The notes under the pieces were generated by a model that was given only the letters and a program-made list of their open reading frames with translations, was not told the origin of the DNA and searched no databases. The position numbers were made by a program, and so were the translations under genes. A DNA stretch of 29,828 bases from Sulfolobaceae archaeon (GTDB lineage Archaea > Thermoproteota > Thermoprotei_A > Sulfolobales > Sulfolobaceae), in the NCBI GenBank assembly GCA_038893355.1, contig JAWARQ010000009.1:1-29828 (forward strand). The letters are read 5' to 3'. This document shows, one piece after another, positions 1 through 27,632 of this stretch (positions are counted from its first letter, which is position 1; every line of letters starts with the position of its first letter).

Positions 1-162
1 TTGGCTGAGATGAATTATTCTAGGAACCCGACGTTGTTGAAGTTTTATGAGTCTCATAAGGATAGGTTGCAAGGTAAGAAGTTGTATGTTGCATTAGCGA
101 GGAAGTTGGCAAGGATTGTTTGGAGTGTTTGGTATAATAATAAGCCTTATGAGCCAAAGTGA
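1..162 (+). CDS. IS110-family transposase/recombinase, C-terminal part (cut by window edge)
   Basis: Frame 1 reads LAEMNYSRNPTLLKFYESHKDRLQGKKLYVALARKLARIVWSVWYNNKPYEPK*. The ALARKLARIVW motif is typical of the IS110 C-terminus. Confidence 0.9.
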   Translation: MAEMNYSRNPTLLKFYESHKDRLQGKKLYVALARKLARIVWSVWYNNKPYEPK

Positions 163-244
163 TTAGGAACCCTCCCCTAATCGCCACGTGGGCCTTTTAG
201 ACCCACGTGGCAATGTTAGCTTATACTATGCTTGAAATATGACC

Positions 245-257
245 GAAAGATTTATTA
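245..257 (+). promoter_or_regulatory. BRE-TATA in IS110 right end, pointing outward
   Basis: GAAAGA-TTTATTA matches the Sulfolobales BRE/TATA pattern and is conserved in the mini copies at 4572, 19664 and 27639. Confidence 0.55.
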
Positions 258-265
258 CTGAACGC

Positions 266-415
266 CCCAACGAGGGGCTTCATTCCTCACTAAGGGATAG
301 GCTTGTACGCTTCAAGAGGGCTACGAAGGCAGTAAATAGGAGCATAAGCATGATAAAGTACTCCATAGCACCAGTCTTATGGGAGAGAAGACTAATCCCA
401 GAATTTATACCCTAA
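266..415 (+). pseudogene. IS1-family transposase C-terminal remnant (ISC796-like), interrupted by the IS110
   Basis: PNEGLHSSLRDRLVRFKRATKAVNRSISMIKYSIAPVLWERRLIPEFIP* resembles the IS1 InsB tail (E..N..LR..L.RL.R.T). Confidence 0.75.
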
Positions 416-3887: not shown

Positions 3888-3916
3888 GTTTAACTTAACG
3901 AAGCGTAGAGTTAAAC
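3888..3916. promoter_or_regulatory. Inverted-repeat operator upstream of vapBC
   Basis: GTTTAACT-N13-AGTTAAAC immediately before the TATA-like TTATTAA. Confidence 0.55.
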
Positions 3917-3944
3917 TTATTAATTAATTTGATAATTTAATCTT

Positions 3945-4175
3945 ATGCAGAAGCTAAAGATTCACAAGAAGGGGATTATAGTTATTCCTAAAGAGATAAG
4001 GGAAAGACTTAATTTAAAGGAGGGAGATGAGGTTAACGTAGTATATGACGATGAAGGCATCTACATATTCCCTAAGCATGAAATTAAGGAATATTTCGGA
4101 AGCGATAAGGATGCCCTAAAAGCACTTGAAATTTTAATGGATATGAGGAGAAAGGAACGTGAGAATAATACTTGA
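3945..4175 (+). CDS. vapB: AbrB/MazE/SpoVT-type antitoxin
   Basis: KKGIIVIPKEIRERLNLKEGD motif; overlaps the downstream PIN gene. Confidence 0.9.
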   Translation: MQKLKIHKKGIIVIPKEIRERLNLKEGDEVNVVYDDEGIYIFPKHEIKEYFGSDKDALKALEILMDMRRKERENNT

Positions 4176-4542
4176 TACTTCTGCACTAATTCTTTATTTT
4201 TATGGGAACTTAGACGTGAAGGAGGTAATAGAAGACGCCGAGGAGGTTTACGTTAATCCCATTAACTTAACAGAGTTCCTTTACGTTTATACTAAGATTA
4301 AGGGTTGGAAGGAAGCCCTATTCAAGTACACTCTTATAAAGAACTCATTTAAAACAATTAACGTAGATGACGAGATCGTAAGGACTTCAGCTAAGTTAAA
4401 GGTTAAGTATAATATTTCATTAGGGGACTCCTATCTCCTTGCATCAGCAAAACTCCTTAACTTAATTGCAGTGACCAGCGACCATGAACTAGAGAAAGTT
4501 AAGGAAGTTAAAGTAAAAGTGATTAAACAGAAGAGTATCTAG
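4159..4542 (+). CDS. vapC: PIN-domain toxin
   Basis: ILDTSAL, conserved E, SLGDSYLLA, TSDHEL. Confidence 0.92.
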   Translation: MRIILDTSALILYFYGNLDVKEVIEDAEEVYVNPINLTEFLYVYTKIKGWKEALFKYTLIKNSFKTINVDDEIVRTSAKLKVKYNISLGDSYLLASAKLLNLIAVTSDHELEKVKEVKVKVIKQKSI

Positions 4543-4546
4543 CATT

Positions 4547-4885
4547 CTGACTTCTCACCGCCCTAGAGGGTGGCGTTCAGTAATAAACCTTTCGGTCATA
4601 TTTCAAGCATAGTGTAAGCTAACATTGCCACTATATAGTTTCCCCTCATCGGTTCGGGTTTACATCCTTCATTTAAGATGCAGACGAGAGATTCAGAGAC
4701 CATTCCATTATCACAACAATACCCTTATCATTCTCGTAACTGCCGGGCATTTAAGCCAAAAGGCGAGAAACCCTAACTATCTTTCGACCACAATTAGGGC
4801 AAGAGGTAGAAGAATAGCAAGGATTAACAAAAACAACAAGGATACAATGCTTCCTTGCCCGCTACTTAATCCAATATTGAACCCT
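4547..4885 (-). pseudogene. tnpB: IS200/IS605 tnpB 3' remnant with right end (ISC1316-like)
   Basis: Minus strand reads [34 protein letters not shown]...YEND...MKDVNPNR*, then a right-end hairpin CCACCCTCTAGGGCGG and GAAGTCAG; contains stops and frameshifts. Confidence 0.8.
4572..4639 (-). mobile_element. Mini IS110 derivative, family 1 (68 bp)
   Basis: AC-TATATA followed by 58/60 identity to 207-266; inserted in the tnpB right end. Confidence 0.75.
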
Positions 4886-4978
4886 ACTTTTTTAATCCTC
4901 TATTAAGTTAATTAAAACGTCTTTCATGATAATTTAGCTGGTTCTAGGAATATGAGGATTCATACCTAGTGTTGAAAT

Positions 4979-5695
4979 CTACCAGTACTTTCCAAATATT
5001 TTTTTCAAAAACGGTGTTTTCTCTATTTTTTCTCTAGTGAGATATTCGATATATAGACCTTTGGGCTTTGGTCTTCTCGGACTAACATAATGAATCCTTT
5101 CTGGAGTAACTATTATATCCACGGGCACATCGAATACCTCAGTGGGAATCTTATCGACTATCTGTAATTCATGAACAGTAGTTGCTATGGGCGTAAATTC
5201 ATCCACTTTTCCTAATTCTCTCAATATTGCAAACTCCAATTCACTATAACCCTCACCTTTTCCCACTCTTTCTCCCTTTAGTGTTACGGCTACTGAACCA
5301 GTTACTATCATGTCAATTTTTGAAATTGATGAAAAATCGGTAACTTTACCGTATCTCATAACCCCTGGGATTGTTGATGCTCTATAAAAGTCGTCAATTT
5401 CATTAGGGTCTAATAAATAAAATTCTCCGCGAAGCCTAGGTGTAGGCACTATCAATATTTTTCCATGTTTTAGTACTAATTCTCTTACTGGCCTCTGTGG
5501 AGAATCCGGACTTACTTTAATTACCTTACTCTTCTTGAATTCTTCAGTTCTAGTAAGGTTTATTGCTGCTTTTTCAGAGCCAATAAAGTTAGGTATTCTT
5601 CCTATTATCGGTAAGGGAAATCTGGCTACCCTCTTTTCCTCTAATACCTTCCATATTCTCATTCTTATTTCTTGTTTTATTTCAGTAGTGTTCAC
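4979..5695 (-). CDS. 5-formyltetrahydrofolate cyclo-ligase family protein (MTHFSD-like)
   Basis: GRIPNF, PDSPQ, VPTPRL, GSVAV...RVGKGEGY, DVPVDIIVTP. Confidence 0.9.
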   Translation of the reverse strand: MNTTEIKQEIRMRIWKVLEEKRVARFPLPIIGRIPNFIGSEKAAINLTRTEEFKKSKVIKVSPDSPQRPVRELVLKHGKILIVPTPRLRGEFYLLDPNEIDDFYRASTIPGVMRYGKVTDFSSISKIDMIVTGSVAVTLKGERVGKGEGYSELEFAILRELGKVDEFTPIATTVHELQIVDKIPTEVFDVPVDIIVTPERIHYVSPRRPKPKGLYIEYLTREKIEKTPFLKKIFGKYW

Positions 5696-5801
5696 AATAG
5701 AACTTAAGTATTGAGGTATAAAAGCAAGAAAATTATGAAGGAAGAATGCACTTCCTTTTATTTCGGAATAGCTTTGGAAAGATATTTAAACTGAATCAGA
5801 A

Positions 5802-7229
5802 ATGATGTATTCTATGGACAGGCTTATTTTTCTCCTAACGCTAGGAACCTTTATGGCATCTATTGATGCAACAATTGTTGTTCTCGCATTACCTATTATA
5901 TCAGAGGAATTGTCATCACCCCTATTCCTAACTTCTTGGATTATAATACTTTATACATTGGTAATAGCAGTATTTACAACCCAGCTAGGCAGAATTGGGG
6001 ACATTTATGGTAGGGCTAAAATGTATAATTTAGGTTTTATGATATTTACAATTGGTTCTGCACTTTGTGGATTTTCTATCAACATCTTCATGTTATTGGC
6101 ATCTAGGGTAATTCAAGCTATAGGTGGTGCATTACTTCAGGCTAATTCTGGTGCTATAATAGCGGATAATTATCCTAGACAGAGAATAGGTAGACCGTTT
6201 GGGTATTTAGCGCTAGGCTGGAATTTAGGTGCGACTGCAGGAGTTTTCCTAGGTGGTTTGATAACTACTTTACTAGGTTGGAGGTTTATATTCTTTATAA
6301 ACATACCAGTAGGGGTAGTAGCCACGACATTGGGATTTAAAGTTCTTAAGGATAAGAATAAGGTTAATGCTAAATTAGATATCCTAGGGGCCTCTTTACT
6401 GTTAATATCATTAACGTTATATTCCCTGAGCTCTTCTTACATAACAGTTGAGGGGATAAGTCTCTCTAACGTAATCTTGATTATCTTAGGTACAATCTTC
6501 TTACTATTATTCATACTCACCGAGAGAACTGCAGAAAGTCCTTTAATAGATCTTAGAGTATTTAAGAATAGGGTACTTTCTGCATCTCTATTTGCATCAT
6601 TATTTCAGAGCCTGGGAGCGATCTCAATATCTTTTCTATTCACGTTATATCTTCAAGGGATAAGGGGATTTACACCACTCTATACTTCTCTAATCCTATC
6701 ACCGTCCTATATACTAGCTAGCATTTTTTCGCCCATAGCAGGTAGACTTACGGATAAGTATGGTGCAAGAGTAATAGCGACATTGGGCTTAAGTATTATG
6801 TTAGTTGCAGTGGTATGCTACATACTCTTACTTACTCCAGATACTTCAATTCTTCTCATAGCATTAGTTTCGTCATTAATAGGAGTTGGTAGTTCATTAT
6901 TTTACCCCGCTAATAATAGTGCGATAATGGGGAATGCTAGAGCTGAATATTATGGCTCGATAAGTGGAATGTTAAGGACTTTGGGTAACATTGGAATTTT
7001 AGGGAGTTATGCATTATCAATTAGCATATCATCACTCACAATACCTAGGAATATTGCACTTAGTGTATTTTCTGGCTCGGTCTCCTTAGGTGGTCTGCCT
7101 ATTGAATATATATCTGGAATTAGAGATTCGTTAATAGTTTCAGTAGGGATAATAGTAGTTGCAATAATCCTTTCTTTAATAAGAGGAAAAGAGGAGAGAT
7201 TATCAGCTAGAAGCGATTTTAACCACTAA
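5802..7229 (+). CDS. MFS drug:H+ antiporter, DHA2/EmrB-like
   Basis: IDATIVVLALP, GRIGDIYGR, WRFIFFINIPVG, PLIDL; ~14 TM. Confidence 0.92.
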   Translation: MMYSMDRLIFLLTLGTFMASIDATIVVLALPIISEELSSPLFLTSWIIILYTLVIAVFTTQLGRIGDIYGRAKMYNLGFMIFTIGSALCGFSINIFMLLASRVIQAIGGALLQANSGAIIADNYPRQRIGRPFGYLALGWNLGATAGVFLGGLITTLLGWRFIFFINIPVGVVATTLGFKVLKDKNKVNAKLDILGASLLLISLTLYSLSSSYITVEGISLSNVILIILGTIFLLLFILTERTAESPLIDLRVFKNRVLSASLFASLFQSLGAISISFLFTLYLQGIRGFTPLYTSLILSPSYILASIFSPIAGRLTDKYGARVIATLGLSIMLVAVVCYILLLTPDTSILLIALVSSLIGVGSSLFYPANNSAIMGNARAEYYGSISGMLRTLGNIGILGSYALSISISSLTIPRNIALSVFSGSVSLGGLPIEYISGIRDSLIVSVGIIVVAIILSLIRGKEERLSARSDFNH

Positions 7230-7811
7230 CTCGCCCTTCTCTGTGAGCTTTAAATCTTCAGTTACTAAACCCTCTTTTTGTAACTCCTTAACCCTCCGCC
7301 AGGTTGTTGATAATGGTATTCCGACGTACTTATGGATTGCCGTAATAGTATTATAACCCATTTGTATAGCAAGTAAAATGTTCACATGGTCTATAGATAG
7401 GGATAATGGCCTAAGGTAGTCTATTTCAAAACTTATAATACTTAATAAATCCTCAGTTTCTATCTCTACCCTAGCATTTTTGCCCGAAAGAGTGAATGCT
7501 ATGAGAATTTCAACTATTAGAGCCCTCATTCCTCCACTTAAATTAACTATAAACTCTTTTGTCTTATATTTTGAGATAAAAGAGATTATCTTCGCAACAG
7601 CACTTTTGAAATCTCTAGGGTCGACCTCAAGATATTCGTAGTCAATTTCTGCGGTTTTAAGAAAGTTAACCAAAGAGTCAAAGGCCTTCTTTGACCTCTC
7701 GTCGTCTAACTTTCCAACAATTACTACCTTTTCTAGCTCCTTATAGTTCCTCATGACCGCCCTAATCTGGAATTTCTCGTCAAAGCCCAATGATGCTAGG
7801 AGAATTTTCAC
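7203..7811 (-). CDS. csa3: Csa3-family CARF-wHTH transcriptional regulator
   Basis: SLGFDEKFQIRA and NLSGGMR CARF motifs, plus a C-terminal wHTH (STTWRRVKEL...LTEKG). Confidence 0.85.
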   Translation of the reverse strand: MKILLASLGFDEKFQIRAVMRNYKELEKVVIVGKLDDERSKKAFDSLVNFLKTAEIDYEYLEVDPRDFKSAVAKIISFISKYKTKEFIVNLSGGMRALIVEILIAFTLSGKNARVEIETEDLLSIISFEIDYLRPLSLSIDHVNILLAIQMGYNTITAIHKYVGIPLSTTWRRVKELQKEGLVTEDLKLTEKGELVVKIASS

Positions 7812-7896
7812 ACAATCTTAACTTCTGCTTTGCTTAAAAATTTTCCGTAGTAATGATAGGGCTAACAAATTTAATCTATACTTCAAAAACTCTAGT

Positions 7897-8721
7897 ATGG
7901 AGACACTTATTATGGTAGAAAGGGTATGGAAATACTTTGGTAAGCTTCTGGTTAATGAGGATATAAGCTTACATGTTGACAGTGGTGAGATAGTATCACT
8001 TTTAGGCCCTAATGGTGCAGGCAAAACTACGCTAGTTAAACAGATATATGGAGAATTAAAGCCGGATAAGGGTACGATAAGGGTTCTTGGCAAAGACCCT
8101 AATTCTATTGAAGTAAAGAGGAAAATGGGTATTATACCACAAGAAACTGAACCATTCGAAGACCTCACGGTTGAAGATAACATTTACTTTATGGGAAAAC
8201 TGAAGGGTATGAAGAAAGACGAAGTCTTAAGGAATCTAAGGAACTTGTTAGAGGCCTTAGGCTTAGAGGATTATAGAAAGAAGTTAGCTAGGAACCTCTC
8301 TGGTGGATTAAAGAGGAAGCTGTTAATCGCAATGGCTTTAGTTAATGATCCAGAAATAGTAATAATGGATGAACCAACGACAGGGCTAGATCCTATATCT
8401 AGGAGGGAAGTATGGGAAATCCTCGATAAAATAAGGAAAGATGGGAGGGGAATACTTTTAACTACTCATTATATGGAGGAGGCAGAAAGGCTGTCAGATA
8501 GGATATATTTCATTAATAGGAGGATAATAGCAGAAGGCACTACGCATGAAATAAAGGAAAAATTTTCTAGTTGGTATGAAGTTTATGATTATAGTACTGG
8601 GAATATTTATAGAGTTAGAACTGAAGAGATTAAGGACTTTTTAATGAAGTTAAATGGAAAGTTCGAGGTAAGGCTACCTTCCCTGGAGGAAGTGTATTTA
8701 AAGGTGGTGAAGAATGATTAG
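7897..8721 (+). CDS. ABC transporter ATP-binding subunit (ABC-2/drug exporter type)
   Basis: GPNGAGKTT, LSGG, DEPT, TTHY. Confidence 0.95.
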   Translation: METLIMVERVWKYFGKLLVNEDISLHVDSGEIVSLLGPNGAGKTTLVKQIYGELKPDKGTIRVLGKDPNSIEVKRKMGIIPQETEPFEDLTVEDNIYFMGKLKGMKKDEVLRNLRNLLEALGLEDYRKKLARNLSGGLKRKLLIAMALVNDPEIVIMDEPTTGLDPISRREVWEILDKIRKDGRGILLTTHYMEEAERLSDRIYFINRRIIAEGTTHEIKEKFSSWYEVYDYSTGNIYRVRTEEIKDFLMKLNGKFEVRLPSLEEVYLKVVKND

Positions 8722-9418
8722 AGAATTCTTTGATTTAGTTATAATGCAATTTAAAATGATAAAAATATATCTTCCAGCAATTATCTTTTATTCAGTATTT
8801 ATCCCTATAGGCTTACTATTAATATTTGGTGTAAACTCTCTACCAACAACGAGAGGTTATGCAATTGCCGGCACAATAACTACACTTATTGCAATGTCTG
8901 GAATTACTGGAGTTTCGCAGACGATTGCTTATGAGAGGAATATAGGAAGGTTTTCCCTATTATTATCCGCAGGAATAAGGCCTTGGCTTTATGCGATTTC
9001 AATAATAATTAGCTACGGGATATCTTCAATTATAACAATCCCCGTAGTTATAATTACCGGCGAGTATGTTTTTGGAATTAAAGTTCAATCACCTTACATG
9101 CTCCTCTATGCAATATTATCGTGTCTATTTACCAGTTCAATGATAGGTTTAGGACTGGGTTACTTTATAAAGAATATTCAAGCAATAAACCAGTTATCAC
9201 CAATAATAGCATTTACACTAATCTTCTTTGCACCAGTCTACTATTCCATAGACGCAATACCTAGTTTCTTAGTTCCACTAACATTCCTAGAACCAACAAC
9301 CTACATGTCTCAAGGAATATTTTATGCAATTCAAGGATCTACAATAAGCATATTATGGTCAACCGGCTGTTTAATATATGGAATAATAGTAATATCAATT
9401 ATGAAGTTGCTAGATTAA
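8714..9418 (+). CDS. ABC-2 type permease
   Basis: ~6 TM segments, APVYYS...P.TY motif, overlaps the ATPase stop. Confidence 0.88.
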   Translation: MIREFFDLVIMQFKMIKIYLPAIIFYSVFIPIGLLLIFGVNSLPTTRGYAIAGTITTLIAMSGITGVSQTIAYERNIGRFSLLLSAGIRPWLYAISIIISYGISSIITIPVVIITGEYVFGIKVQSPYMLLYAILSCLFTSSMIGLGLGYFIKNIQAINQLSPIIAFTLIFFAPVYYSIDAIPSFLVPLTFLEPTTYMSQGIFYAIQGSTISILWSTGCLIYGIIVISIMKLLD

Positions 9419-10482
9419 AAAATTCTTTTTATTAAAAATATTATGGTGAATATTATTATAAATAATAACAATAATATTATAAATAATATTTTATAATCAA
9501 ATTTAGTAATTATTGAGCTGGTTGTAATAAAGTCCTTTACACCATACCAGCTTAGAATCAGAGACTTTAGAGCATTAGCTAGATTAGGATCTTTTATTAT
9601 AACACCCAATTCCCTATTCTTAAATATCGAGGAGTAACTTAGGTTTATCGAACCAACATATACGTAGTCCCCTATTACTATTAGCTTTGCCGTTAAGTTT
9701 TCCTTAACTCTTATCCAATTAGTAACTAAATCAGAACGGTCTACTACAACATACTTATTATTGTGTAATAAGATATAACTTACTAGTTCCGAAGAGTTAT
9801 AAAGCTCCTCCATTGCAATATATACACTTGATTCATTTATTGACAGCAATCCCTTAAGTTGATAATAAGAATTTAAAGGTGATACTATTATCCCAGGATA
9901 ATTATAGGCAGGGAAATAACCACGATGATCATTTAGTATTATTGTCGCAAACCATGTCGCTATCGTTGAGTTCCTTATTACGATTGAAACTCCTAGATCC
10001 CTAAAGAATCCTGAATAAGTAGGATTTTGAGTGCTCACTATCACAGTCTGATTATCTATAACGTAAACTTTACTATGGACATATTTAAATTTAGTATCTA
10101 AGAAAGATACATTTACGCCGTTCCGTTTAAGATAGTCTGTAACATCATATTCAGAAGAGGGTATTTCGCCATAAACATCACGGGACAACACTACGAAAAC
10201 TTGAATACCATGTCTTGATTTGTTAGCAAGCAACTCTGCTAATGGGTAATAAGTCATGACATAGACCTCAATGTATATCGCTTTTTTAGCATTATTTAAA
10301 TAATCTAAAATTTTAGTTGAATTTAAAGGTGATACTAATATTTCATAATCCTTCGAAATAAGATACGAGAATTGTGAAGTTTCAGACTCACTTTTTAATT
10401 GTATAGTTATAACTAGATTTATTAATAATACAAAAATTAAAATAAAGCTTTTCTTTATCACGCGGATATTAAAGTATTTCAT
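9415..10482 (-). CDS. Phospholipase D-like protein, exported and membrane-anchored
   Basis: HSKVYVID (HKD1); degenerate TAKLIVIGD...GSIN (HKD2); hydrophobic N- and C-termini. Confidence 0.85.
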   Translation of the reverse strand: MKYFNIRVIKKSFILIFVLLINLVITIQLKSESETSQFSYLISKDYEILVSPLNSTKILDYLNNAKKAIYIEVYVMTYYPLAELLANKSRHGIQVFVVLSRDVYGEIPSSEYDVTDYLKRNGVNVSFLDTKFKYVHSKVYVIDNQTVIVSTQNPTYSGFFRDLGVSIVIRNSTIATWFATIILNDHRGYFPAYNYPGIIVSPLNSYYQLKGLLSINESSVYIAMEELYNSSELVSYILLHNNKYVVVDRSDLVTNWIRVKENLTAKLIVIGDYVYVGSINLSYSSIFKNRELGVIIKDPNLANALKSLILSWYGVKDFITTSSIITKFDYKILFIILLLLFIIIFTIIFLIKRIF

Positions 10483-10690
10483 TTAATAAACTTTAACTAT
10501 CCCTTACTCCGGTTATAGGTTATCTTTATTATGGCACGGCTAGAGTTCTGAGTTGATCTCTTTTTTCATATTTTTAATTATTATATCTATATATTCTTAA
10601 TTTAAGCTAGTTTATAGTTTTAGAAAACTGTAAATAAATATATCCAGATGATATTTATATCTGGAATGTGAGATATTAAATAGTGGGACT

Positions 10691-11206
10691 ATGGTAATTA
10701 ACATTACAGTTCCACTATTACAGAAGGTTAAGGAGAAGCTCATCAAGTTCTTTGGCTTTGACTTCCCGACTCCCGTAATCCTTAGGTCTAGTGAACCGTA
10801 TAGGGGTTATTATATGCACGGTGCTATTGTTATTGGTTCTTTTGAAGATGAGGAAGACGAAGAAAGGGTATTAATCCATGAAATGGCTCACTACGTTCAA
10901 GACATATATTGCAAACCCAAATTTCCGTGGTTTAAGGCACTTATTGAGATAGTCCCTCTTGCACTAGGATTTTTAAAGAGAGGGAAGTTGTTAGATTATT
11001 TAAGGTTTACTGAAGGGTTTGCAACCTGGGTAGAGGAAGAAATATTAGGGGAGAGAGGTAAACAATATTGGCTCTCATTACCGCGTTACTATAGGGTAGT
11101 ATATTATGAAGGAGCGCAGTTCTTTAGGAAAATGGGCAAAATCAACGCCATAAGATATGCATTAGAAGAAAGTGAATTTTGTAAAAAGAGAAAAAATATT
11201 AATTAA
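10691..11206 (+). CDS. Small zinc metallopeptidase-like protein (gluzincin-type)
   Basis: HEMAH followed by TEGFA. Confidence 0.7.
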   Translation: MVINITVPLLQKVKEKLIKFFGFDFPTPVILRSSEPYRGYYMHGAIVIGSFEDEEDEERVLIHEMAHYVQDIYCKPKFPWFKALIEIVPLALGFLKRGKLLDYLRFTEGFATWVEEEILGERGKQYWLSLPRYYRVVYYEGAQFFRKMGKINAIRYALEESEFCKKRKNIN

Positions 11207-11787
11207 TAGTTTGTCTTTTTATAGTTTATTAATTTATTAATATCTATTCTATACTCAAACAAAATAGCCCTAGTACTTCTGACAAAATTAATGGCAAGCT
11301 TTGCCATTTATGACGAGGTAAAAATTTTAATCTTATATAATTTGTGCCACAAAGTAAATGAAACATGTAAATTTGCTTATATTTTACAAATTTAATTTTA
11401 CTAATTAGAATTATTTTTGTAAAACTATTTTAAGAGAATTGTTTAGAACAGTAATGGTTAGCTCCATAGCCCAACTTAACGTTAAATTCCTTTACTCTAG
11501 ATAAGGTACTTCCATAAGTTCATCTAAACATTATACTTATATCACCTATTTTTAGAACTATAATACTTACTATCAAGAATTTTTAAATCGTTTGATATTC
11601 TAAATTCCAATGAAGAAAATATCTTTAGAGAGAACAAGTTTCCCTCTCTATCTATTATTAATACTCCCGACAATGTCAACGGGAGGAAATTGTACATATG
11701 AATTATGCACCGATTATTAGGAAAATATACGAGTTTCATGACTAAGGGCTAATTATTAGCTCTTAAATTATAAGCTTAAATTGTAGC

Positions 11788-13398
11788 TCAGCAATGATTA
11801 CTAATGAACTCTACAGTCTCTTTTATCGAATCAACATAATTTTCTATCTTTGCAAACCCGTGCCCCTCATCTTTATAGATCTTATATTTCACTTCTCTGT
11901 TTAACTTCTTTAGTTCGTTGACCACTTGCAATGTTTCTTCAACTGGGCATCTCGGGTCGTTTTCACCAGCTAGGAGTAATAATGGAGCTTTTATTCTATC
12001 AATGAAGAATATCGGCGACCTATCCCTCAATAAATTTTCATCACTGCCCACCTTTACTTCGTCATATTGCTGAAGTACTTCCCTCTCGAATTTCTTCTCA
12101 GTAAACCAATTTACGAATGGCACTACTGCAACTGCAGAACACCAGAGGTCTGGGAACTTTGTAATAGCCATCATCGTTAAATAACCGCCATAACTAGCAC
12201 CGGTTATTGCGACCTTCTTAACTCCCAAAACCTTTACGGAGTTTATAACGTCTAATAACTCCCCTCCTCCGGGGTCTTTGTCGTTTAAATGATTAAACTT
12301 TCTCCCATAACCTGTAGATCCTCTGTAGTTAGGACAAATTACCTTAAACCCTCTCTCTACGAAGAACTGAATTTCTGGATTAAACGAGTTTACGCATTCC
12401 CAGTCTGGACCGCCATGAATATAAACTATACCCTTGTCTTCATCACCTCTTTCATAAAGTAAGGCATAAATCTTAATTCCGCCAGAATCATAAGAAATAA
12501 CCTTAGGTTTTATAAAGTTGCCTCTAACATCATTCATTGAATTAGTTAGCCTCTCTACTTCTCTTCTATATCTGTATAGGTCTGCTGCCCTGTCATGCCT
12601 AGAGTTTATGAAATATAAGTAATCTCCATCAACTTTTAAAGAGTGAGTTAAGCCCTCACTAACAATCTCCCTCTCATGAATTAGCACAAAGTTACCATGT
12701 CTATCTTCGACATAAGCAATAGAACTATTATAAGGAATGGCCTCAAATATCTCATAGTCGCTCTCCCTTATTTTTCTTATCTCTCCCTTCATAATATCAA
12801 ATTCATAGACCTTATATAGATCCTCGTGATTTGATAAGAATATAAATGATGATGGTGAAGTGAAACAAGTCTCATTCGCAAGTATCTGTTCTGAGTTCGG
12901 TATGTTAATCACATGAAGCTCATTACCACTAAGGTCAATTACGTGAATATTATTATCGTAGATCCCAGTTGAGTAGATTATGTACTTACTATTAAAGCAA
13001 TAACCGTTTACCGGGCCTTCACCTCTACTTAACTTTATGTATTTTCCTTCGTTATAGAGATAAAGGTGTAACGTCCTTCTGTCATAATTTGAGATTATTA
13101 GTATTCCCTCTTTTGTTTCACGGGGAGAGAAATTGTCAAATTCGTTATCGATAATTTTCTCTATCTTCTCGTTATCGTAAAGGTAAACCTTTCTTATTTC
13201 ACTACCGTTAGGGTCTATAGTAATAAACATTTTATTCTTGCTTATCCAATACACTTCCTCAGCATACCCTTCAAGTTGTACTTTTTCTCCATTAACATAA
13301 ATGATAGGCTTTTCGTCCCTTATAATTGTTGCAATCTTTCCATTATATACGTCATAATCAAGTACTGGTTTTATCTTGAATAAATCTTCATATTTCAT
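11788..13398 (-). CDS. S9-family peptidase (acylaminoacyl peptidase-like)
   Basis: IHGGP, NYRGSTGYG, GASYGG, DPRC, EGHGF triad motifs. Confidence 0.93.
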   Translation of the reverse strand: MKYEDLFKIKPVLDYDVYNGKIATIIRDEKPIIYVNGEKVQLEGYAEEVYWISKNKMFITIDPNGSEIRKVYLYDNEKIEKIIDNEFDNFSPRETKEGILIISNYDRRTLHLYLYNEGKYIKLSRGEGPVNGYCFNSKYIIYSTGIYDNNIHVIDLSGNELHVINIPNSEQILANETCFTSPSSFIFLSNHEDLYKVYEFDIMKGEIRKIRESDYEIFEAIPYNSSIAYVEDRHGNFVLIHEREIVSEGLTHSLKVDGDYLYFINSRHDRAADLYRYRREVERLTNSMNDVRGNFIKPKVISYDSGGIKIYALLYERGDEDKGIVYIHGGPDWECVNSFNPEIQFFVERGFKVICPNYRGSTGYGRKFNHLNDKDPGGGELLDVINSVKVLGVKKVAITGASYGGYLTMMAITKFPDLWCSAVAVVPFVNWFTEKKFEREVLQQYDEVKVGSDENLLRDRSPIFFIDRIKAPLLLLAGENDPRCPVEETLQVVNELKKLNREVKYKIYKDEGHGFAKIENYVDSIKETVEFISNHC

Positions 13399-13679
13399 AA
13401 AAAATAAAAGGAAAGTTGAAATAAAAAGTTATTCAGGACGTTTACCCTATGCCGTGAACCGCTCCTGACCAACTTCATTATCACAGAAGATTAAGAGTCT
13501 TATATTTTAGAATATGAATGAATACTATTAAAATTTTTAGTAATTTATCCTATTAATTTTAGACAAACACAGTTTATGTCTCAGATCTTATTAGATCTTG
13601 CCTTTAGGATAGAAAGAAAGCTAAACTTCTGAACATTTCCTATAATTAACTATTTAGGCATGAATTCAATTAGCTCTTT

Positions 13680-15521
13680 ATGTTTTATAACAATAAGCTA
13701 CTGCTTACACTCTCTATAATAACCTTCTATACGTACTGGCTTTTAGAATTTTTAAACCTCCTCCCAGTATATCCTATCATACTACAGATATTAGGGATTA
13801 CCACAGTAGTTTCAGTATTATTATATTTCAAAAATTACCTTTTAAAATATCTTAGAATTAAGCCATTACTTATAGGGTTTGTACTCTACGTCGAATTCAC
13901 AGTACTATGGATGTATTTCAAACATTTATCATTCGAAACTTTTGCATTCGATTTAGGCATTTTCATGCAGGCATTATACACTACCTTATATAATCATTTA
14001 TTCTTCTTTGAATCCCCAGATTTATTTTATCTTAATTTGAAAGACCCTTTCCAATTATCCTTTTTCGATATACATTTTTCTCCAATATTATTCCTTTTAC
14101 TACCATTTTACGCTTCTTTCCCTTCAGAGCTCACATTATTTATTATCCAATCAGTAGTATCAGCCTTGCCAATATTCGTAATTTATGCGATTGCGAGAGA
14201 ATTCTACGACTATAAAAATAGTGTAACTATATCCTTATTCTATCTTATTAACCCTCTACTATACTATGCTAACTTCTATGATTTTCATTTAGAAGCATTT
14301 TTACCACTCCTTTTCTTACTATCGACTTATTTTTTCTTTAAAAATAAATTGAAAAAATTTTATATATCGTTAATATTAGCATTTAGTACTATTGAAGGTG
14401 CTCCAGTTCTATACCTATTTTATATACCCTATCTATTTTTGAAAAAGAGAGATCATGAGGTAAGGAAGAAGTTACTTTATTCTATCCCATTAGCAATATC
14501 TTTTTATGGATTAAATTTGCTAGTTAAGCATATTTTATCACATTCTACTCCGAATTTTCTCCCTTACAATCCAAGTTTAGATAAGCTTCACGTTATTCTA
14601 GAGGTAATAGGCCCCTTCTTTATTTATATTATACTATTCCTTCTCCCAGTCTCGTTAGCACCTATCTTTAGAATATTGCCCTCACTACCCGGTTTTGCAT
14701 GGTTATTTTATGGCTTATCTACACTTTATTACCCATACTATAGCGTTTACTTCCAATATAATTACTTAGTAATACCGTTCTTTTATGTTTCCTTTATAGA
14801 ATTTTATAAATTTTTTAATATTGAAAATTATATAAATAAAGTTTTTTCTATAATTTTATTATCAATTTTAACTCTTTTCGCGAGTCAACCGATTTTTATT
14901 CTTCCACCCTCAATGCTAGTCCCCAAAGTTCAACAATCTGATTTAGTTCTTAATAACATAATAAACTCTCTTCCCAGTTTAGGAGAGAGTTGTATATTAA
15001 CTATGAACGAGATATTTCCGCATGTAGCAAATAACAAATGCACATTCTTAACCTTCTTAAACATCTCGTTAAATCCAGATTATATCATCTTAAAGAATTT
15101 TGATAATATAAATAGTTTCTATATTATAAGTAATTATTCAAAGAATAAAAACTATAACATAGTAGCAATGTCGTTTCCAGATTTCATAATATTAGGGAAG
15201 TGGAATAATACCCCCATCTTTTATAAACCACTAAATGAGTTGTTATATTTGTATAGTAATAAAACTAATTATATCATTAACTACTTTATTATATTATTTC
15301 CTGAAAAGAAATATGAAATAAATGTATTAAATAATATTACTGGTAACATTACAATTTTCGACTACAACGGTAATGTAGTATTTAAATCAAGAATTACTAT
15401 TAATAACAAGACGTTTATAATAGAGCCTAAGGAGCTAGTAAATTTGAACAAGATAGTGATTGTCTCAAATGAACTAGTTTATCCTTATATCGAATTGAAT
15501 ATAAAAGAAATAAATAGTTAA
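13680..15521 (+). CDS. DUF2079-like polytopic membrane protein (probable GT-C glycosyltransferase)
   Basis: FDLGIFMQ, HFSPIL and YDFH motifs; many TM segments; Asn-rich C-terminal domain. Confidence 0.75.
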   Translation: MFYNNKLLLTLSIITFYTYWLLEFLNLLPVYPIILQILGITTVVSVLLYFKNYLLKYLRIKPLLIGFVLYVEFTVLWMYFKHLSFETFAFDLGIFMQALYTTLYNHLFFFESPDLFYLNLKDPFQLSFFDIHFSPILFLLLPFYASFPSELTLFIIQSVVSALPIFVIYAIAREFYDYKNSVTISLFYLINPLLYYANFYDFHLEAFLPLLFLLSTYFFFKNKLKKFYISLILAFSTIEGAPVLYLFYIPYLFLKKRDHEVRKKLLYSIPLAISFYGLNLLVKHILSHSTPNFLPYNPSLDKLHVILEVIGPFFIYIILFLLPVSLAPIFRILPSLPGFAWLFYGLSTLYYPYYSVYFQYNYLVIPFFYVSFIEFYKFFNIENYINKVFSIILLSILTLFASQPIFILPPSMLVPKVQQSDLVLNNIINSLPSLGESCILTMNEIFPHVANNKCTFLTFLNISLNPDYIILKNFDNINSFYIISNYSKNKNYNIVAMSFPDFIILGKWNNTPIFYKPLNELLYLYSNKTNYIINYFIILFPEKKYEINVLNNITGNITIFDYNGNVVFKSRITINNKTFIIEPKELVNLNKIVIVSNELVYPYIELNIKEINS

Positions 15522-15678
15522 TTTTTTAAAAAAAAACTATACTATCTATTTTATATAATTAGTAATAGCATCTCATAATATTTTGACAACCTCTTTATGC
15601 AAAACACAATAATTAATTCTGAGTAATACGGATCTAAATAGGATGTAGGAAGTTAATCCCTTGGACTCCACATCCTAA

Positions 15679-15727
15679 AGGCGTTATAAGCTCCGCCTCT
15701 AACAGACCTAAAGTTTACAACCGTAGG
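15679..15727. mobile_element. Mini insertion, family 2 (AGG-bounded, 46 bp added)
   Basis: Homologous to 25221-25266 and 27371-27419; removing it restores the tnpB end hairpin. Confidence 0.75.
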
Positions 15728-15886
15728 AGGATGAGGTTTCCATTACGACGAGTCATAGGTTTGGGTTTTATCACCTTCATCCTCACCATTTCATAGCTGG
15801 TAGGTGCAATAAGCACAAACCCTACCCCATTCGTCCAGCGGTAGACCACGGGCTGGGCCTTCAGCCCATTACCCCTATCCCTTGCT

Positions 15887-16154
15887 AGGGCTGAATCCTT
15901 TTTCGTGTTGATAGAAATCTTTTTATATATTAGTTTTTTAAATTTCTATGGTGGAAATGAACCCTCATGCCGATGTGGGCTATGCCCAAAAGGAGAGGGT
16001 GAGGGCTGGAGATGTGAGCCCCGTGCCGTTGGGCTCAAAGGAGTCCCATGACCCACTTGTCGTGAAGCTGGGTAGGTGGTTGAGGGCTAAATCCCTACAC
16101 CAGATCATGATTGAACATGAAATGATTGAAATGATAACGTAGGGACAAACGGTT
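15887..16154 (+). mobile_element. IS607-type MITE, copy A (left end + tnpB 3'/omega-RNA end)
   Basis: GGGCTGAATCC...TATA...ATGGTGGAAATG fused to a tnpB tail (HDP...WLRAKSL...MIEM*); ends GACAAAC-GG; homologous to 27268-27574. Confidence 0.75.
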
Positions 16155-16375
16155 GCCCTCTGCTCTTGGCTCCTAAGGAATAAAGGATATGCAGTTCAGT
16201 GCGGGGATACTTATTTTCACTATGAAAGTGGGCTTCCCTGCACTTCATTAGTAGTAAACGCTTCAGTTTATTATGCTAAAAGCTTGCTTAGCCTTTAAAA
16301 GCCAAGGTTCACCGTTCATTTCATCATTAAGTATATATCAACTTCCTTCTTTATAACTACTCAAATACAAATTTG

Positions 16376-16756
16376 TTAAATTACTATATTAAATGTAGTC
16401 TTAATCCATTCAAGAATTTTCATAGCAGAATTTAGACATTCCTCAGCGCTTCTTCTCGTGTAATGTGTAAACTGAGAATAACGGGATATAACATAATGGG
16501 GAGTTAAAAAATCGCACCTTAGCAGTATCTCATTAGGAGCGTTTATAGAAAGCTCATTTCTTATCTTTTCAGCTAATTCTCCGAGGTCGTTTGTAAAGGG
16601 ATATACACCTTTATATTTTACTAATATTCCTTTCAATGCAAACTCAACGCTCTGTTGGCTCGCAAAGCACGAAAACCAGTAATATCCATCCTCTAAGTGC
16701 TTCTTGGCAAGCTCAAGGAACTCCTTGCTCTTCTCGAACCAGAACTTTTCTACCAT
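16376..16756 (-). CDS. HEPN-domain protein (COG2250-like)
   Basis: SCFASQQSVEFALKG, T(N)DL, SRY; ATG at 16756. Confidence 0.88.
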   Translation of the reverse strand: MVEKFWFEKSKEFLELAKKHLEDGYYWFSCFASQQSVEFALKGILVKYKGVYPFTNDLGELAEKIRNELSINAPNEILLRCDFLTPHYVISRYSQFTHYTRRSAEECLNSAMKILEWIKTTFNIVI

Positions 16757-16810
16757 GTTGAAATATAAATTTCTAGTCAATGTTTTAAACTTCTAATAGA
16801 ATTAAACTCA

Positions 16811-17113
16811 ATGAGATTTGAAGATTTTGTGAAAAAGATCATAGAGCATTATAACGAAAGAGTTACAATAGCCTTATTCGGATCTAGGGCTAGAGACGAC
16901 TATTGGGAATCGAGCGATTATGACATAATGGTATTCTTAGAGAAAGTTGAAGACCAAATAGGTGAGGCTGTAAAGTTATACTCTATGAAGAGAGGATTTT
17001 CAGCAGACATTCTGGTCTTAAGTGCAGATAAGGTGAAAGATCCTATTATTATGAAAATGCTTGAGCATAAGAAGGTAATTTATGATGGACTCAATCTCTT
17101 TTCCAGTAGATAA
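16811..17113 (+). CDS. Minimal nucleotidyltransferase (MNT)
   Basis: LFGSRAR...SDYD...D. Confidence 0.9.
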   Translation: MRFEDFVKKIIEHYNERVTIALFGSRARDDYWESSDYDIMVFLEKVEDQIGEAVKLYSMKRGFSADILVLSADKVKDPIIMKMLEHKKVIYDGLNLFSSR

Positions 17114-17256
17114 AAACAAGTTTTTAGCTCATTACGACTATCCCTAATCTCGCATGTTAGAATTATGTGAAACTTCTAATTTAGTATCTTTAATAAACCT
17201 TATCTTATCCTTTACGGTGTAAAGAGTTATAGTTTAGTTATACTTTTCTTTTTTAT

Positions 17257-18300
17257 TTAATGAAGTAATTTTTCAAACTCCACTTCCCTTAAGATTGGGT
17301 CTGTAATAACATATTCACCATTTCTTTTTTCCACGAAACTGCTTTTTACTAAGTTTTCAAGAGCGTTACTAAATACTTTATCATCTATTTTCCCTAATGC
17401 GATTTCAACACCTCTTTTTATTTCCTTCCACCTAGACACTATCTTTATAGTCTTCATAATCTCGATGTATAACTCCTTATTTACCTTGTCACCAAGGAAG
17501 TGACGGAATTCTTCGGCCATGATCTTTTTACCTTCCTCCACAGTCTCTTTTAATGCTTCATTAAAGCTGAGTCCCCTAACAGCGTATAAATTACCGAAAA
17601 GAGTTAGCCATCCAACTACGCCATCAAGCTTTTTTACAACCTCGTCCTCTCTATTGAATTTTACATTTAACTCCTCCATTCCTTTTCTTAAGAATTCCTT
17701 TGCCCTCTCTTCATCAAAAGGTTTCAGAACTAAAACTGCTGGGGGCCTACCATGGAGTGGTGAATTTGAGGGCGGATTTAAAAGAGTCCTCATAACGCCA
17801 ATATAAGATCCCGTAAAAATGAACCTTATTTTAGGATTCGTAGAAAATACATTGCCTAAAACATCGAGAAACTGTTTACTGGCTTTAGAAAGTTCTTGTA
17901 CTTCATCTAAGGCCAAAATTGAATCATGAAGTGAATTTAAGAGTTCTATAAGCGAGTTAACGGTTTTTGCTCCTTTTTTTACTCTTATTCCAGCCGAACC
18001 GATAACGAAGTTTACTTTAACATCAACAGATAGTCTTAATAAGTTTATCTGGGAAAGGAGGGAGTTTAAAAGGCCGTTTAGACTCCTTACTCCTCGTAAA
18101 TTGATGTAAATCCCTTTAAACCTGTGTTTTTTCTTAAGCTCGTTTAAGACCACCTTCACTAAACTGGTCTTACCTATCTCTCTTTGCCCCCCTACTATAA
18201 GCCAGTTCCCAGAGAGTAGCTGCTTAACAGCGTAGTCGACTTCGTAATCTCTACCGAAAAGCTCTTTCCTATCCTCTTTGGGGTGAAGGTCAAAAAGCAA
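17257..18300 (-). CDS. Archaeal AAA-superfamily ATPase with C-terminal wHTH (COG1672-like)
   Basis: LFDLHPK...LFGR, GQREIGKT, LDEVQEL, FTGS, DP tail. Confidence 0.88.
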   Translation of the reverse strand: MLFDLHPKEDRKELFGRDYEVDYAVKQLLSGNWLIVGGQREIGKTSLVKVVLNELKKKHRFKGIYINLRGVRSLNGLLNSLLSQINLLRLSVDVKVNFVIGSAGIRVKKGAKTVNSLIELLNSLHDSILALDEVQELSKASKQFLDVLGNVFSTNPKIRFIFTGSYIGVMRTLLNPPSNSPLHGRPPAVLVLKPFDEERAKEFLRKGMEELNVKFNREDEVVKKLDGVVGWLTLFGNLYAVRGLSFNEALKETVEEGKKIMAEEFRHFLGDKVNKELYIEIMKTIKIVSRWKEIKRGVEIALGKIDDKVFSNALENLVKSSFVEKRNGEYVITDPILREVEFEKLLH

Positions 18301-18335
18301 CTGGTGTCACTACAGTTACTGGTGTAACACCAGTT
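18299..18335. promoter_or_regulatory. Tandem palindromic operator at the ATPase start
   Basis: Perfect ACTGGTGT-A-ACACCAGT (18318-18334) plus a degenerate copy AACTGGTGTCACTACAGTT (18299-18317). Confidence 0.65.
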
Positions 18336-18474
18336 AAAAATTTTGTTGATGAAGTAAGTATTAGTCTGGTGATAGTGTAACCACTCAGCTACAAAATATC
18401 TTTTTGCTTTATACCACTTTATAAGAAAATCATATTTTGCACTTCTACTCTACAATAAGAATTTTTAATACAAC

Positions 18475-18510
18475 AATTTATAGCTTAATAACGACACTAT
18501 CTCCAGACTG
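18475..18510 (+). repeat. Orphan IS1-family right end
   Basis: 33/36 identity to 402-437. Confidence 0.75.
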
Positions 18511-18719
18511 TTAAGGTTCGAAAACACCTTTTTAAGGTCGGATGAATAGTCCTCTTACGTTTAAGCAACTCTTTGTTGAAATACCTATTAATGCAAGTGA
18601 TTCTCCTCCCAGCTAGATGATACTGAGGGGAGGAGCAGTTATCATCTCTTAAGGGACTAGATGCTGTGGATGAAATTCAAATCCTCTTTTCATATGGGAT
18701 AGTTCTGGCGCTCTAGTTC

Positions 18720-18796
18720 TGTTTGTCTCTACACTTTTATTTCAATCATTTCATGTCCATTCATGATTGAGTGTAGGGACCTAGCCCTCAACTACC
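18720..18796 (-). mobile_element. IS607-type right-end fragment, copy C
   Basis: Reverse complement GTTGAGGGCTAGGTCCCTACACTCAATCATG...GAAATGATTGAAAT...GTGTAGAGACAAAC matches the ends of copies A and B. Confidence 0.75.
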
Positions 18797-18963
18797 CTAT
18801 AGAGGCATAGTATGTGGTGCATATATAGGTCTTGAATCGACCAAAATTAGAAAGATATCAATAATTTTCCTATTATTCTTTAGAAAATTAGCGAACTTTT
18901 ATGAAATTTTTATAATTTTAAATTTTATCATTAAATAATTATTTATTTCAAAGTTTAAACATC

Positions 18964-19437
18964 TTAAAACTCCCTTTCCATTATCCTATTCATGATTTCT
19001 ACGAATTCCTCAACTTTTAATAACGAAAGTTTAACATCCTCAATCGTCATAAAGTTCTCATAGAAATTTGAGTGGAGCCTTAAGCAAATAGACCACCCAG
19101 AGACCAACTTTTCGTCTTTTTCTGTACTTATCAATTTACTCATCGCTTCCTCTAATTGCCTATGCCTATAATGCTCAAGGCCCTTTTTCTCAGCGTATGC
19201 CTTTACGATTGAAGCACAAGCCCCCCATGCCTTCTCTGAGGCTTGAACTAAATCCCCGCTCTCAAGGTACTTTTTAGCCTCTGAGAGAAGCTCATTTGCT
19301 TTCTCCTTATATAAAATAAAACGTGTTGAGGGGTCAAGATCTCTCGAAAGCTTATCAATAAGCAATACCTCCTCATCAATTCCCTTTTGAAAAGCTTCCT
19401 TCTTAAGTATCTCCTCCAAAATCTTGGGTATTTCCAC
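18964..19437 (-). CDS. PaREP1-family protein
   Basis: GDLVQASEKAWGA and LHSNFYE motifs. Confidence 0.85.
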   Translation of the reverse strand: MEIPKILEEILKKEAFQKGIDEEVLLIDKLSRDLDPSTRFILYKEKANELLSEAKKYLESGDLVQASEKAWGACASIVKAYAEKKGLEHYRHRQLEEAMSKLISTEKDEKLVSGWSICLRLHSNFYENFMTIEDVKLSLLKVEEFVEIMNRIMEREF

Positions 19438-19663
19438 AAATTGATTATAAGCGCATGATAATAAAATACTTTATACTCAGCTTAATGACTCAGCATTTTG
19501 TAGTAGATACTTGAAATTTATCTATAATATAGATGATCTGTGAAATGGTGACATTACCTCCATATAAAACACCATACCGAAGTATTTGGAAAGTGGGAGT
19601 GTTCTGTTATGGAAGATTTGATTGTACGGTTAACGTTATTAGAAAGGTGGATGAAAGGGTAAT

Positions 19664-19728
19664 GACGTTCAGTAATAAATCTTTCGGTTGACTTTAAGCA
19701 TGGTATTAGCTAAGATTGCCTATATAGG
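19664..19728 (-). mobile_element. Mini IS110 derivative, family 1 (65 bp)
   Basis: CC-TATATA-GGCAATCTTAGC...ACCGAAAGATTTATTACTGAACG-TC. Confidence 0.72.
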
Positions 19729-19831
19729 TTTTTCCTTGACTGACCTCAATGAGTTAAGTGTGACTGTGCATAATCCCTTTGGGGTTAATGTAGTAAAATT
19801 AAAAGCAATTAAAAGTAAATATTCGACGAAA

Positions 19832-21627
<1,796 letters not shown>

Positions 21628-26472: not shown

Positions 26473-26718
26473 ATGGAAAGGTATAGGGTTAAGGTTTATA
26501 AAAAGGGAATTATCGTCATTCCTAAAGAGGTAAGGGAGAAACTTGGAATAAAAGAGGGAGATATTTTAGAGTTGGTAATTGATGGTGAGAGGATAAGTTT
26601 GGAGAGACCAGAGACACTCTTAGACCTTTTCGGTATTGATGGAGAAGAGGCTGCGGAGATGGCTAAACAACTAATTGAGGAAAGGAGGAAAGAAGTTGAA
26701 AGAGAGATACGTTCTTGA
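26473..26718 (+). CDS. vapB: AbrB/MazE/SpoVT-type antitoxin
   Basis: KKGIIVIPKEVREKLGIKEGD. Confidence 0.92.
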   Translation: MERYRVKVYKKGIIVIPKEVREKLGIKEGDILELVIDGERISLERPETLLDLFGIDGEEAAEMAKQLIEERRKEVEREIRS

Positions 26719-27094
26719 CGCAGGGCCACTGTTTTTGTTGTTCGCTGGTGAAAAAGGTGTTAAAAAATACTTTGAAGAAATGTATAAGGGGAGAGTTGAA
26801 ATTTATATGAATGAAGTCAATTTAGCGGAGTTTCTTCACCTTTATATTTCAAGAAAAGGAAAGGATATCGCATTAGCTAGGCACAGATATATTAGGAATT
26901 CACCTATTAAGATAGTGCCTCCAGACGAAAAGATTACAGAGACCGCCGCCTTGTTAAAGAGTAAATATAACTTTCTTTCATTAGCAGACGCATTTCTAAT
27001 AGCTACTGCAAAAGAAATTAACGGTGTCATTATTACTACAGATGAAGACATAGAAAAGACTAAGGAAATCAAAACAATAAAAATCTCTTTTTGA
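26696..27094 (+). CDS. vapC: PIN-domain toxin
   Basis: VLDAGP, NLAE, SLADAF, TTDED; TTG start after GGAGG. Confidence 0.9.
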   Translation: MKERYVLDAGPLFLLFAGEKGVKKYFEEMYKGRVEIYMNEVNLAEFLHLYISRKGKDIALARHRYIRNSPIKIVPPDEKITETAALLKSKYNFLSLADAFLIATAKEINGVIITTDEDIEKTKEIKTIKISF

Positions 27095-27574: not shown

Positions 27575-27632
27575 TCATGGGACTCCTACTTTAAAGAGTG
27601 ATAACCTTACGGGCTAAGTCCTTCCTCATGTT

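Follow-up and report, generated by a model that had tools for sequence, protein, structure and literature searches.

Short two-ended derivatives of an IS110-type insertion sequence in Sulfolobaceae and a recurrent deletion breakpoint at its palindromic left end

The three short copies found in the window (the whole stretch of 29,828 nucleotides of Sulfolobaceae DNA that was analysed) are best explained as internal-deletion derivatives of a 1233-bp, bridge-RNA-guided insertion sequence (IS) of the IS110 type; they would have arisen by separate deletions, and some stubs of this kind would have spread. We regard this explanation, taken as a whole, as moderately probable. Each stub keeps the core, the first 6–9 nt of the left end and the last 22–60 nt of the right end, the RNA and transposase genes being lost. 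The parts kept are donor half-sites readable by the RNA of the element itself, i.e., the right-end ACTGAAC, the left-end TATAT and the cores, and the copies lie at the usual landing sites specified by the RNA, in or at the ends of three repeats, designated X, Y and Z. The most likely history would be one of separate deletions in resident full-length copies, with copy 2 possibly brought in by the carrier Z; the deletions would be anchored at the end of the palindrome CCTATATAGG and, on the right-end side, would extend into its final 170 nt.

The window corresponds to contig C9 of its own genome (G000), an assembly of 17 contigs and 1.40 Mb that is 83.8% complete. Its gene content is typical of Sulfolobaceae, with MFS transporters, VapBC-like and HEPN/nucleotidyltransferase pairs, PaREP1, Csa3, and a KDG-type kinase plus aldolase. 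It includes a Csa3-type regulator (7203–7811), which is present without any CRISPR array in the window, two AbrB/MazE-PIN pairs (3957–4542 and 26473–27094) that are paralogous to each other (repeat D6, 79%), and a HEPN/nucleotidyltransferase pair (16376–17113).

The parent element enters the window at its first nucleotide. It is a full-length IS110-type element truncated by the contig start, and positions 1–162 (plus strand) represent the 3' part of its transposase ORF (53 codons and a stop); they are followed by a non-coding right end of 104 nt (163–266, plus strand), which ends with ACTGAACG and the core CC. The 8-bp palindrome CCACGTGG occurs twice in this right end and gives a hairpin at about 180–214, and the terminal 60 nt (207–266) are the part common to the short copies. 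The DNA identity between this fragment and the ends of the 1233-bp copies of relatives is 85–90%. When positions 1–266 were used as a DNA query, 18 of 61 genomes gave matches, G000 included: 17 of the 36 other genomes of the same family, and none of the 24 from other families of the order. The matches in relatives stop at 266 or a few nucleotides away, and the flanks past that point differ from copy to copy. Twenty long matches were fetched from relatives; 17 of them align over 1231–1233 nt, and three (L023, L030 and L035) are truncated.

The 53-residue transposase fragment of the window gave no Pfam match by itself. The ORF of the full-length copy L031 matched Transposase_20 (PF02371) with 89.4 bits (cut-off 21.3) and DEDD_Tnp_IS110 (PF01548, the N-terminal, RuvC-like domain) with 27.7 bits (E 2.6e-6), slightly below the curated cut-off of 29. 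PF01548 scores just below its cut-off in this clade, so that its zero counts in G000 and in a second genome, G034, weigh little, and PF02371 was used instead, with 14 matches in G017 and eight in G006. The G000 contigs, in which only the last 53 transposase codons are assembled, gave zero matches to PF02371 and to PF01548. Two left ends of the same element lie at contig ends of G000 (C10:25177 and C16:7791); copy numbers in this genome are lower bounds, the assembly being 84% complete. The size and the host clade suggest that the parent may be a relative of ISC1229: the intact ISC1229 of Saccharolobus solfataricus P2 also spans 1233 bp by the coordinates given in PMC10883916.

Both ends are uniform in all 17 full-length copies. 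On the left a variable flank is followed by CC and then by TATATAGG; on the right TTATTACTGAACG, with ACTGAACG terminal, is followed by CC and then by a variable flank. Since empty sites carry a single CC, this CC represents the core dinucleotide. The parent element is devoid of terminal inverted repeats (TIRs), as the comparison of TATATAGG with ACTGAACG reveals, and has CC on either side, with no longer duplication. The left end, together with the core CC, forms a perfect 10-bp palindrome, CCTATATAGG (CC, TATATA, GG). Because the IS of the window is truncated by the contig start, TATATA could not be recognised as the left end within the window itself; it was established from the 17 full-length relatives and from the two left ends at the G000 contig ends.

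Judging from the alignment of the left ends, the left end encodes a two-loop bridge RNA, with a target loop and a donor loop. This RNA was defined from that alignment, Rfam giving no family (a scan of three full-length loci with E up to 1 matched none), and occupies about nt 48–166 of the left end; in G000 it lies at C10:25177–25300 and C16:7791–7914. The 17 aligned left ends (from among L021–L040) share a conserved scaffold with two hypervariable patches that flank a small conserved hairpin. The 5' patch equals the copy's own left flank over 8–10 nt in seven of the 17 copies (L025, L026, L028, L032, L037, L039 and L040), and the 3' patch, when reverse-complemented, gives the initial 5–6 nt of the right flank in four (L025, L027, L028 and L032); these matches were judged by eye, and ten of the 17 copies, several of them within duplicated carriers, have no match. 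A second, invariant module of the RNA consists of ACTGAAC (which equals the right end of the element), a small hairpin and ATATAGG (which covers the TATAT of the left end). RNAalifold, run on 14 copies, returned two internal-loop modules with 44 pairs, four of which exhibit compensatory changes.

Some further features of the ends can be mentioned here. In principle, the right-end tail might have served as the guide RNA, in the style of IS1111, given that an ACTATGC in the tail resembles the X target; this candidate was rejected, the stretch in the tail being constant across targets and the left-end patches being variable. The window contains two direct copies of a different repeat of about 300–480 nt, along with a partial copy in inverted orientation (15674–16154, 27270–27575 and 18721–18796), and a related 48-nt piece is inserted just after the donor-loop ATATAGG in L034 and L038, with a larger piece in L035. 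The final 22–25 nt of the right end (window 244–266, all copies) are much more conserved than the 7 nt read by the guide. This conserved right end resembles an outward-facing archaeal BRE/TATA promoter, which could affect neighbouring genes; in a circle such a putative promoter would face the left end, and at copy 2 it would face the start of a PaREP1/HEPN-like gene (18964–19437). The loop of the right-end hairpin reads TTGAAAGG in the copies of the G017 type and differs among lineages; in L091 it is inverted relative to the other copies (the right ends compared included those of L092 and L110). The loop TTGAAAGG is presumably similar to the 3' terminus of the CRISPR repeats of Sulfolobales and might correspond to the Cbp1 site reported for ISC1229.

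Copy 1 (4572–4639, minus strand) consists of a 60-nt right-end tail (4572–4631), the left-end TATATA (4632–4637) and a flanking dinucleotide (4638–4639), and its junction reads TATATAGTGGCAAT on the element's strand. The tail shares 96.7% identity over 60 nt with window positions 207–266 (E 2e-22; inverted repeat I3, 97%), and its final 55 nt are identical to the window's own IS end at 53 of 55 positions. Neither G000 nor the 70 loci examined (see below) yielded a sibling of this junction. The left end of copy 1 adjoins the end of repeat Y (4640–4882, plus strand, about 250 bp), copy 1 lying 1–2 nt past it. Repeat Y has many copies with 66–73% identity in G003, G004, G006, G015 and others, all of which begin at window position 4640; in G027 a full-length IS (L033) lies beside the same Y end, about 3 nt off. 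In a contig of run X3, which comes from another sample, the 60-nt right-end tail (4631) is joined straight to the tip of the repeat bearing target X (18510), the left-end motif being absent; this joint reflects either another element inserted in the right end at that point or an assembly artefact.

Copy 2 (19664–19728, minus strand) is composed of the palindrome CCTATATAGG (19719–19728) and a 55-nt right-end tail (19664–19718), with the junction TATATAGGCAAT on the element's strand; positions 19666–19720 match the IS right end with 85.7% identity over 56 nt (E 5.6e-11). It is enclosed by repeat Z (19582–19818, minus strand), which it splits. The same repeat, uninterrupted and with a single CC, occurs at G003:C1:154124–154304 (L066) and represents the empty site of copy 2; in G017, two full-length elements (L022 and L025) occupy the position of copy 2 within Z. 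The junction of copy 2 recurs, again inside Z, in G005 (L067 and L068) and in G029 (L078). Four of the five copies with this junction are thus within the carrier Z, the fifth (L083) lying instead in an X target, and for the four Z-borne ones the nearest sequence is L022 (51–53 of 55 positions), a full-length copy that is itself in Z. The two G005 copies are at separate loci, each flanked by Z, and therefore Z carried the stub. In two other loci (L089 in G017 and L094 in G018) repeat Z lacks about 55 nt on the left side of the stub, and the gap ends exactly at the left core of the stub, i.e., a flank-side deletion anchored at the left junction of the element. Among the contigs of four other samples (runs X2, X3, X20 and X8) over window 3900–20100, which drop rare variants, no allele lacking copy 1 or copy 2 was seen; one X3 contig crosses copy 2 unchanged, and the contigs of these runs end in or near copy 1.

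Copy 3 (27639–27672, minus strand) comprises a right-end tail of about 22–24 nt and a degenerate left end of 8–9 nt (TGTATTAAG). Positions 27639–27660 equal the last 22 nt of the element with one mismatch, a match that is weak alone in a genome of 1.4 Mb (E 0.001). The copy sits precisely at the known target of the element, splitting X between CACTATTTCT and AGACTG, the latter on the right; it lies in the terminal part, bearing target X, of a repeat (27671–27749, minus strand) that forms inverted repeat I2 with 18426–18503. The window also contains two uninterrupted X targets (393–437, ending with GACACTATCTCCAGACTG, and 18466–18510, both on the plus strand and making up repeat D13), each of which is an empty site for copy 3. 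The X motif is split by four full-length copies of G017 (L026–L029), and the left guide of L026 spells it. G000 and the 70 loci gave no sibling of copy 3 either. Elsewhere in G000, an 11-nt scar composed of the left-end palindrome plus G (C13:12523, 12513–12535) lies within an otherwise intact X target and resembles either the footprint of an imprecise excision or the product of an extreme deletion, and a fragment at C1:147551 has the left end only.

The composition that the initial annotation had assigned to the short copies, i.e., about 6 nt of the left end joined to the last nucleotides of the right end, is borne out, with 6–9 nt on one side and the last 22–60 nt on the other for a total of 32–68 bases. 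The bounding dinucleotides do contain C: on the element's strand, copy 1 has AC and CC, copy 2 has CC and TC, and copy 3 has CT on the left and CC on the right. TIRs are indeed lacking, the two ends being unrelated, and only the 2-nt core is repeated, so that there is no target-site duplication and the copies are not MITEs in the strict sense. Both the bridge RNA (about nt 48–166 of the left end) and the transposase are absent from all three, as had been stated, and the two junctions described as almost the same, those of copies 1 and 2, differ by 2–4 nt. The claim that removal restores a recognisable sequence holds for copy 2, through the G003 empty site, and for copy 3, through 393–437 and 18466–18510; what is restored, however, belongs to other repeats and not to unique host DNA.

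The distribution of the derivatives was analysed on 70 loci, i.e., 58 short or partial matches from twelve genomes (L061–L120 without L066 and L116), six further loci of G034 and six sites of G000. In 35 of these 70 loci the palindrome CCTATATAGG is joined directly to a right-end tail of 31–167 nt; the palindrome is exact in 21, has one mismatch in five and two mismatches in nine (the latter accepted by eye), and seven more palindrome matches (one with one mismatch and six with two) were rejected as chance. None of the 70 loci, which were 230–370 nt long and came from a census seeded with the right end, combines a longer left-end piece with a tail. The rest are about 25 tails without a recognisable left end, 8–9 ends of long copies and three loci without an anchor. 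The tails fall into at least nine length classes (31, about 40, 55/56, 58, 61, 65/66, 74/75, 133 and 165/167 nt), and the right breakpoints are all within the last 170 nt of the element; derivatives with tails of 267–1200 nt were not found among the 20 long matches.

Furthermore, GG or AGG lies right before the right breakpoint for tails of 31, 55/56, 65/66, 74/75, 133 and 165 nt, as judged in the closest full-length copies among those compared. The first 165 nt of the left end contain 19 GG, and the left breakpoint uses the first alone, leaving 18 unused. The five copies with a 65/66-nt tail, the commonest junction (L061, L062, L063, L069 and L074), are each nearer to a distinct full-length lineage (46–54 of 55 positions) than to one another (46–51 of 55), these being gapless nearest-neighbour scores, which are unreliable with indels and were left unused for copy 2, L070 and L113; the same junction therefore arose more than once. 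Orthologous empty sites were sought in sister genomes for the stubs L069, L074 and L103 (in G006, G027 and G034), and none was obtained, the left flanks being other repeats and the right flanks having no usable orthologue.

A different picture emerged from G034, a complete related genome in a single contig, where a 46-bp form is present 11 times, with an additional partial match, at 85–100% identity. This form consists of the palindrome CTTATATAAG and a tail of about 38 nt, with the core CT. One junction is common to 11 of the 12 G034 loci fetched (the G034 loci include L101–L106 and L127–L131), and the copies are distributed over five or more unrelated contexts. One of the carriers is found with the stub (L137 and L139) and without it, the latter with a single dinucleotide (L138). 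Since junctions vary so much elsewhere, 11 copies with one junction are hard to reconcile with independent deletions. In G034, no match to PF02371 was retrieved by the search that gives 14 in G017 and eight in G006. These sequences point to one stub that was probably multiplied with the transposase supplied in trans, the autonomous element then being lost; at five of the 11 sites, which have a similar left flank, the copies could instead be the product of a hot spot or have been borne by other repeats.

As to the origin of the deletions, we infer that the recombinase itself might initiate them, with the mirror-image GG of the palindrome acting as a false core in what may be called a "half-match" event. 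As the left end equals its own reverse complement, both strands could offer the short right-hand half-site of the donor guide, and a half-match exchange that pairs this mirror core with a GG close to the synapsed right end would remove the DNA in between and yield exactly the junctions observed. The stubs would formally still be competent donors, and the 46-bp form of G034 might plausibly have multiplied through a single-stranded circle. That the recombinase makes its own miniatures through the mirror GG, and that stubs of 46–85 bp then move as single-stranded circles, is a possibility that we put forward tentatively. The false-core idea is drawn from the positions of the breakpoints; copy 1, which breaks at left-end position +6/7, where the parent has no GG, is a poor fit to it, as are the 11-nt scar and the G034 junction, for neither of which a GG is demonstrable in a known parent. 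A similar picture could be given by microhomology-mediated deletion with selection for small copies that still transpose. A guided version of the false-core idea, which predicts the reverse complement of the right-end guide site after each right breakpoint, was also considered and dismissed, as the sequences past the breakpoints do not fit.

The initial annotation had proposed that all three window copies arrived ready-made, as minimal donors mobilised in trans, forming a family similar to MITEs and lacking TIRs. The donor half-sites and the cores are indeed retained, the insertions are precise and empty sites exist; moreover, the 11 G034 copies with one junction and L083, where the junction type of copy 2 appears in a different context, the X target, speak in its favour, and precedents exist in ISPpu9/MITEPpu9 (PMC12288879) and in the single-stranded circles of IS621 (10.64898/2026.08.31.748434). 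The latter weaken the difficulty, raised at the outset, that so small a circle is hard to form. On the other hand, the three window copies have three different junctions, and copies 1 and 3 are singletons. Copy 2 is mostly explained by Z, in which four of the five copies with its junction lie, their tails being nearest to L022. Tails of 3, 133, 165 and 167 nt, in addition, form a continuous deletion series rather than one optimised element. A different junction in every copy, and full-length IS110 at the same sites, had been named as observations that would speak against mobilisation; both were made, the latter in relatives at Z (L022, L025), at X (L026–L029) and at the Y end (L033). The presence of the same derivative at several unrelated sites, with empty sites, was found for the 46-bp form of G034. 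Mobilisation in trans of minimal donors is thus plausible for the stub class, going by the probable spread in G034, and lacks support for the three window copies; as an account of all three it appears rather doubtful.

Passive decay alone would make the short copies random remnants of a dead IS that were never mobile, the shared junctions being due to inheritance, carrier movement or microhomology hot spots. The partial copies of ISC1229 in P2, one of them of 77 bp, are termed decaying remnants in the passages of PMC10883916 that deal with them, and the many junction classes, the commonness of carrier repeats and the roughly 25 of 70 tails without a recognisable left end agree with such a process. 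It leaves unexplained, however, the single left break in 35 of 35 two-ended derivatives with 18 other GG sites unused, the lack of 267–1200-nt tails among the 20 long matches, and the 11 near-identical 46-bp copies of G034, in unrelated contexts and with an empty paralogue, and we consider it decidedly unlikely. It might also be supposed that the shared 60 nt are a pre-existing host repeat beside which the IS inserts, the short copies being intact targets, given that IS110-family elements home to repeats and that every short copy is in or beside another repeat. Yet these 60 nt always stand ahead of the core in the 17 full-length copies while the flanks beyond vary, the empty X and Z sites do not contain them, and the final part of that stretch recurs in the donor loop of the RNA; such a reading is almost certainly wrong. 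The palindrome-anchored breaks, the recurrent junctions and the carriage by Z together favour repeated end-anchored deletion, followed sometimes by passive spread in carriers.

A transposase-less IS110 module with both ends is already known, and the most interesting new point is the fixed breakpoint. MITEPpu9 is the name under which the ssr9 module of ISPpu9, an IS110-family element of Pseudomonas putida KT2440, is registered, and circles of the module alone were detected experimentally; in the IS110 group, the RNA is upstream of the transposase gene (PMC12288879). MITEPpu9 resembles the present stubs in being devoid of transposase and bounded by near-copies of both IS ends and the core dinucleotide, the anatomy (both ends and cores kept, transposase absent) that was found here, and in lying alone or beside the IS at the IS's own repeat targets, with transposase in trans proposed (PMC12288879). 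It differs in carrying an sRNA gene and boxes of 43 and 16 bp, and in that circles were seen (PMC12288879), whereas the present stubs, of 32–85 bp, have no evident gene, fall into many junction classes, are archaeal and are known here from sequence alone. The partial ISC1229 copies of P2 come from the same host clade, span about 77–401 bp and keep the 3' flank, but they are regarded as remnants in decay and as sites for Cbp1, which binds some of them in the 3' flank; the passages on them in PMC10883916 contain no two-ended anatomy, fixed breakpoint or spread.

With IS621 the parent element shares an RNA located 5' of the recombinase gene, target and donor loops, a core dinucleotide, a short donor half-site and the absence of inverted repeats (PMC13626964; 10.64898/2026.08.31.748434). 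The present element differs in its core CC (CT in G034), in a left end that is a perfect 10-bp palindrome and in a PF01548 score just under the cut-off; moreover, it was studied here only as sequence. According to a 2026 preprint, IS621 has mainly one strand excised, gives single-stranded circles and needs the donor arms alone, and a half-site of only 5 bp, the right donor motif RD, can suffice for its recombination (10.64898/2026.08.31.748434). The Sulfolobus MITEs SM1–SM4 and SMN1 are likewise short, gene-less and multi-copy in Sulfolobales, with transposase in trans, but they have TIRs and target-site duplications and derive from DDE-type ISs (PMC3718332), whereas the present copies have neither TIRs nor duplications. 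A literature search, with subscription papers outside its range, found no paper on two-ended IS110 stubs in Sulfolobales, on a palindrome-anchored fixed breakpoint or on IS110 derivatives shorter than 100 bp.

Bridge recombinases are in development as programmable genome editors, for which the minimal natural donor and the side reactions of the enzyme are practical questions. The stubs suggest that 6–8 nt of one end, with a few tens of nucleotides of the opposite one, are enough for persistence and, in one genome, probably for multiplication; the constant break at the palindromic end, in turn, suggests a specific off-pathway deletion reaction. If the recombinase did make its own miniatures, no smaller RNA-guided mobile DNA would be known, and bridge recombinases would have natural minimal donors in them. 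The bridge RNAs of the full-length copies represent a natural archaeal series of reprogrammed guides. As for genome annotation, the intergenic regions of Sulfolobaceae hold many IS110 scars of 30–85 bp that are missed by finders based on inverted repeats.
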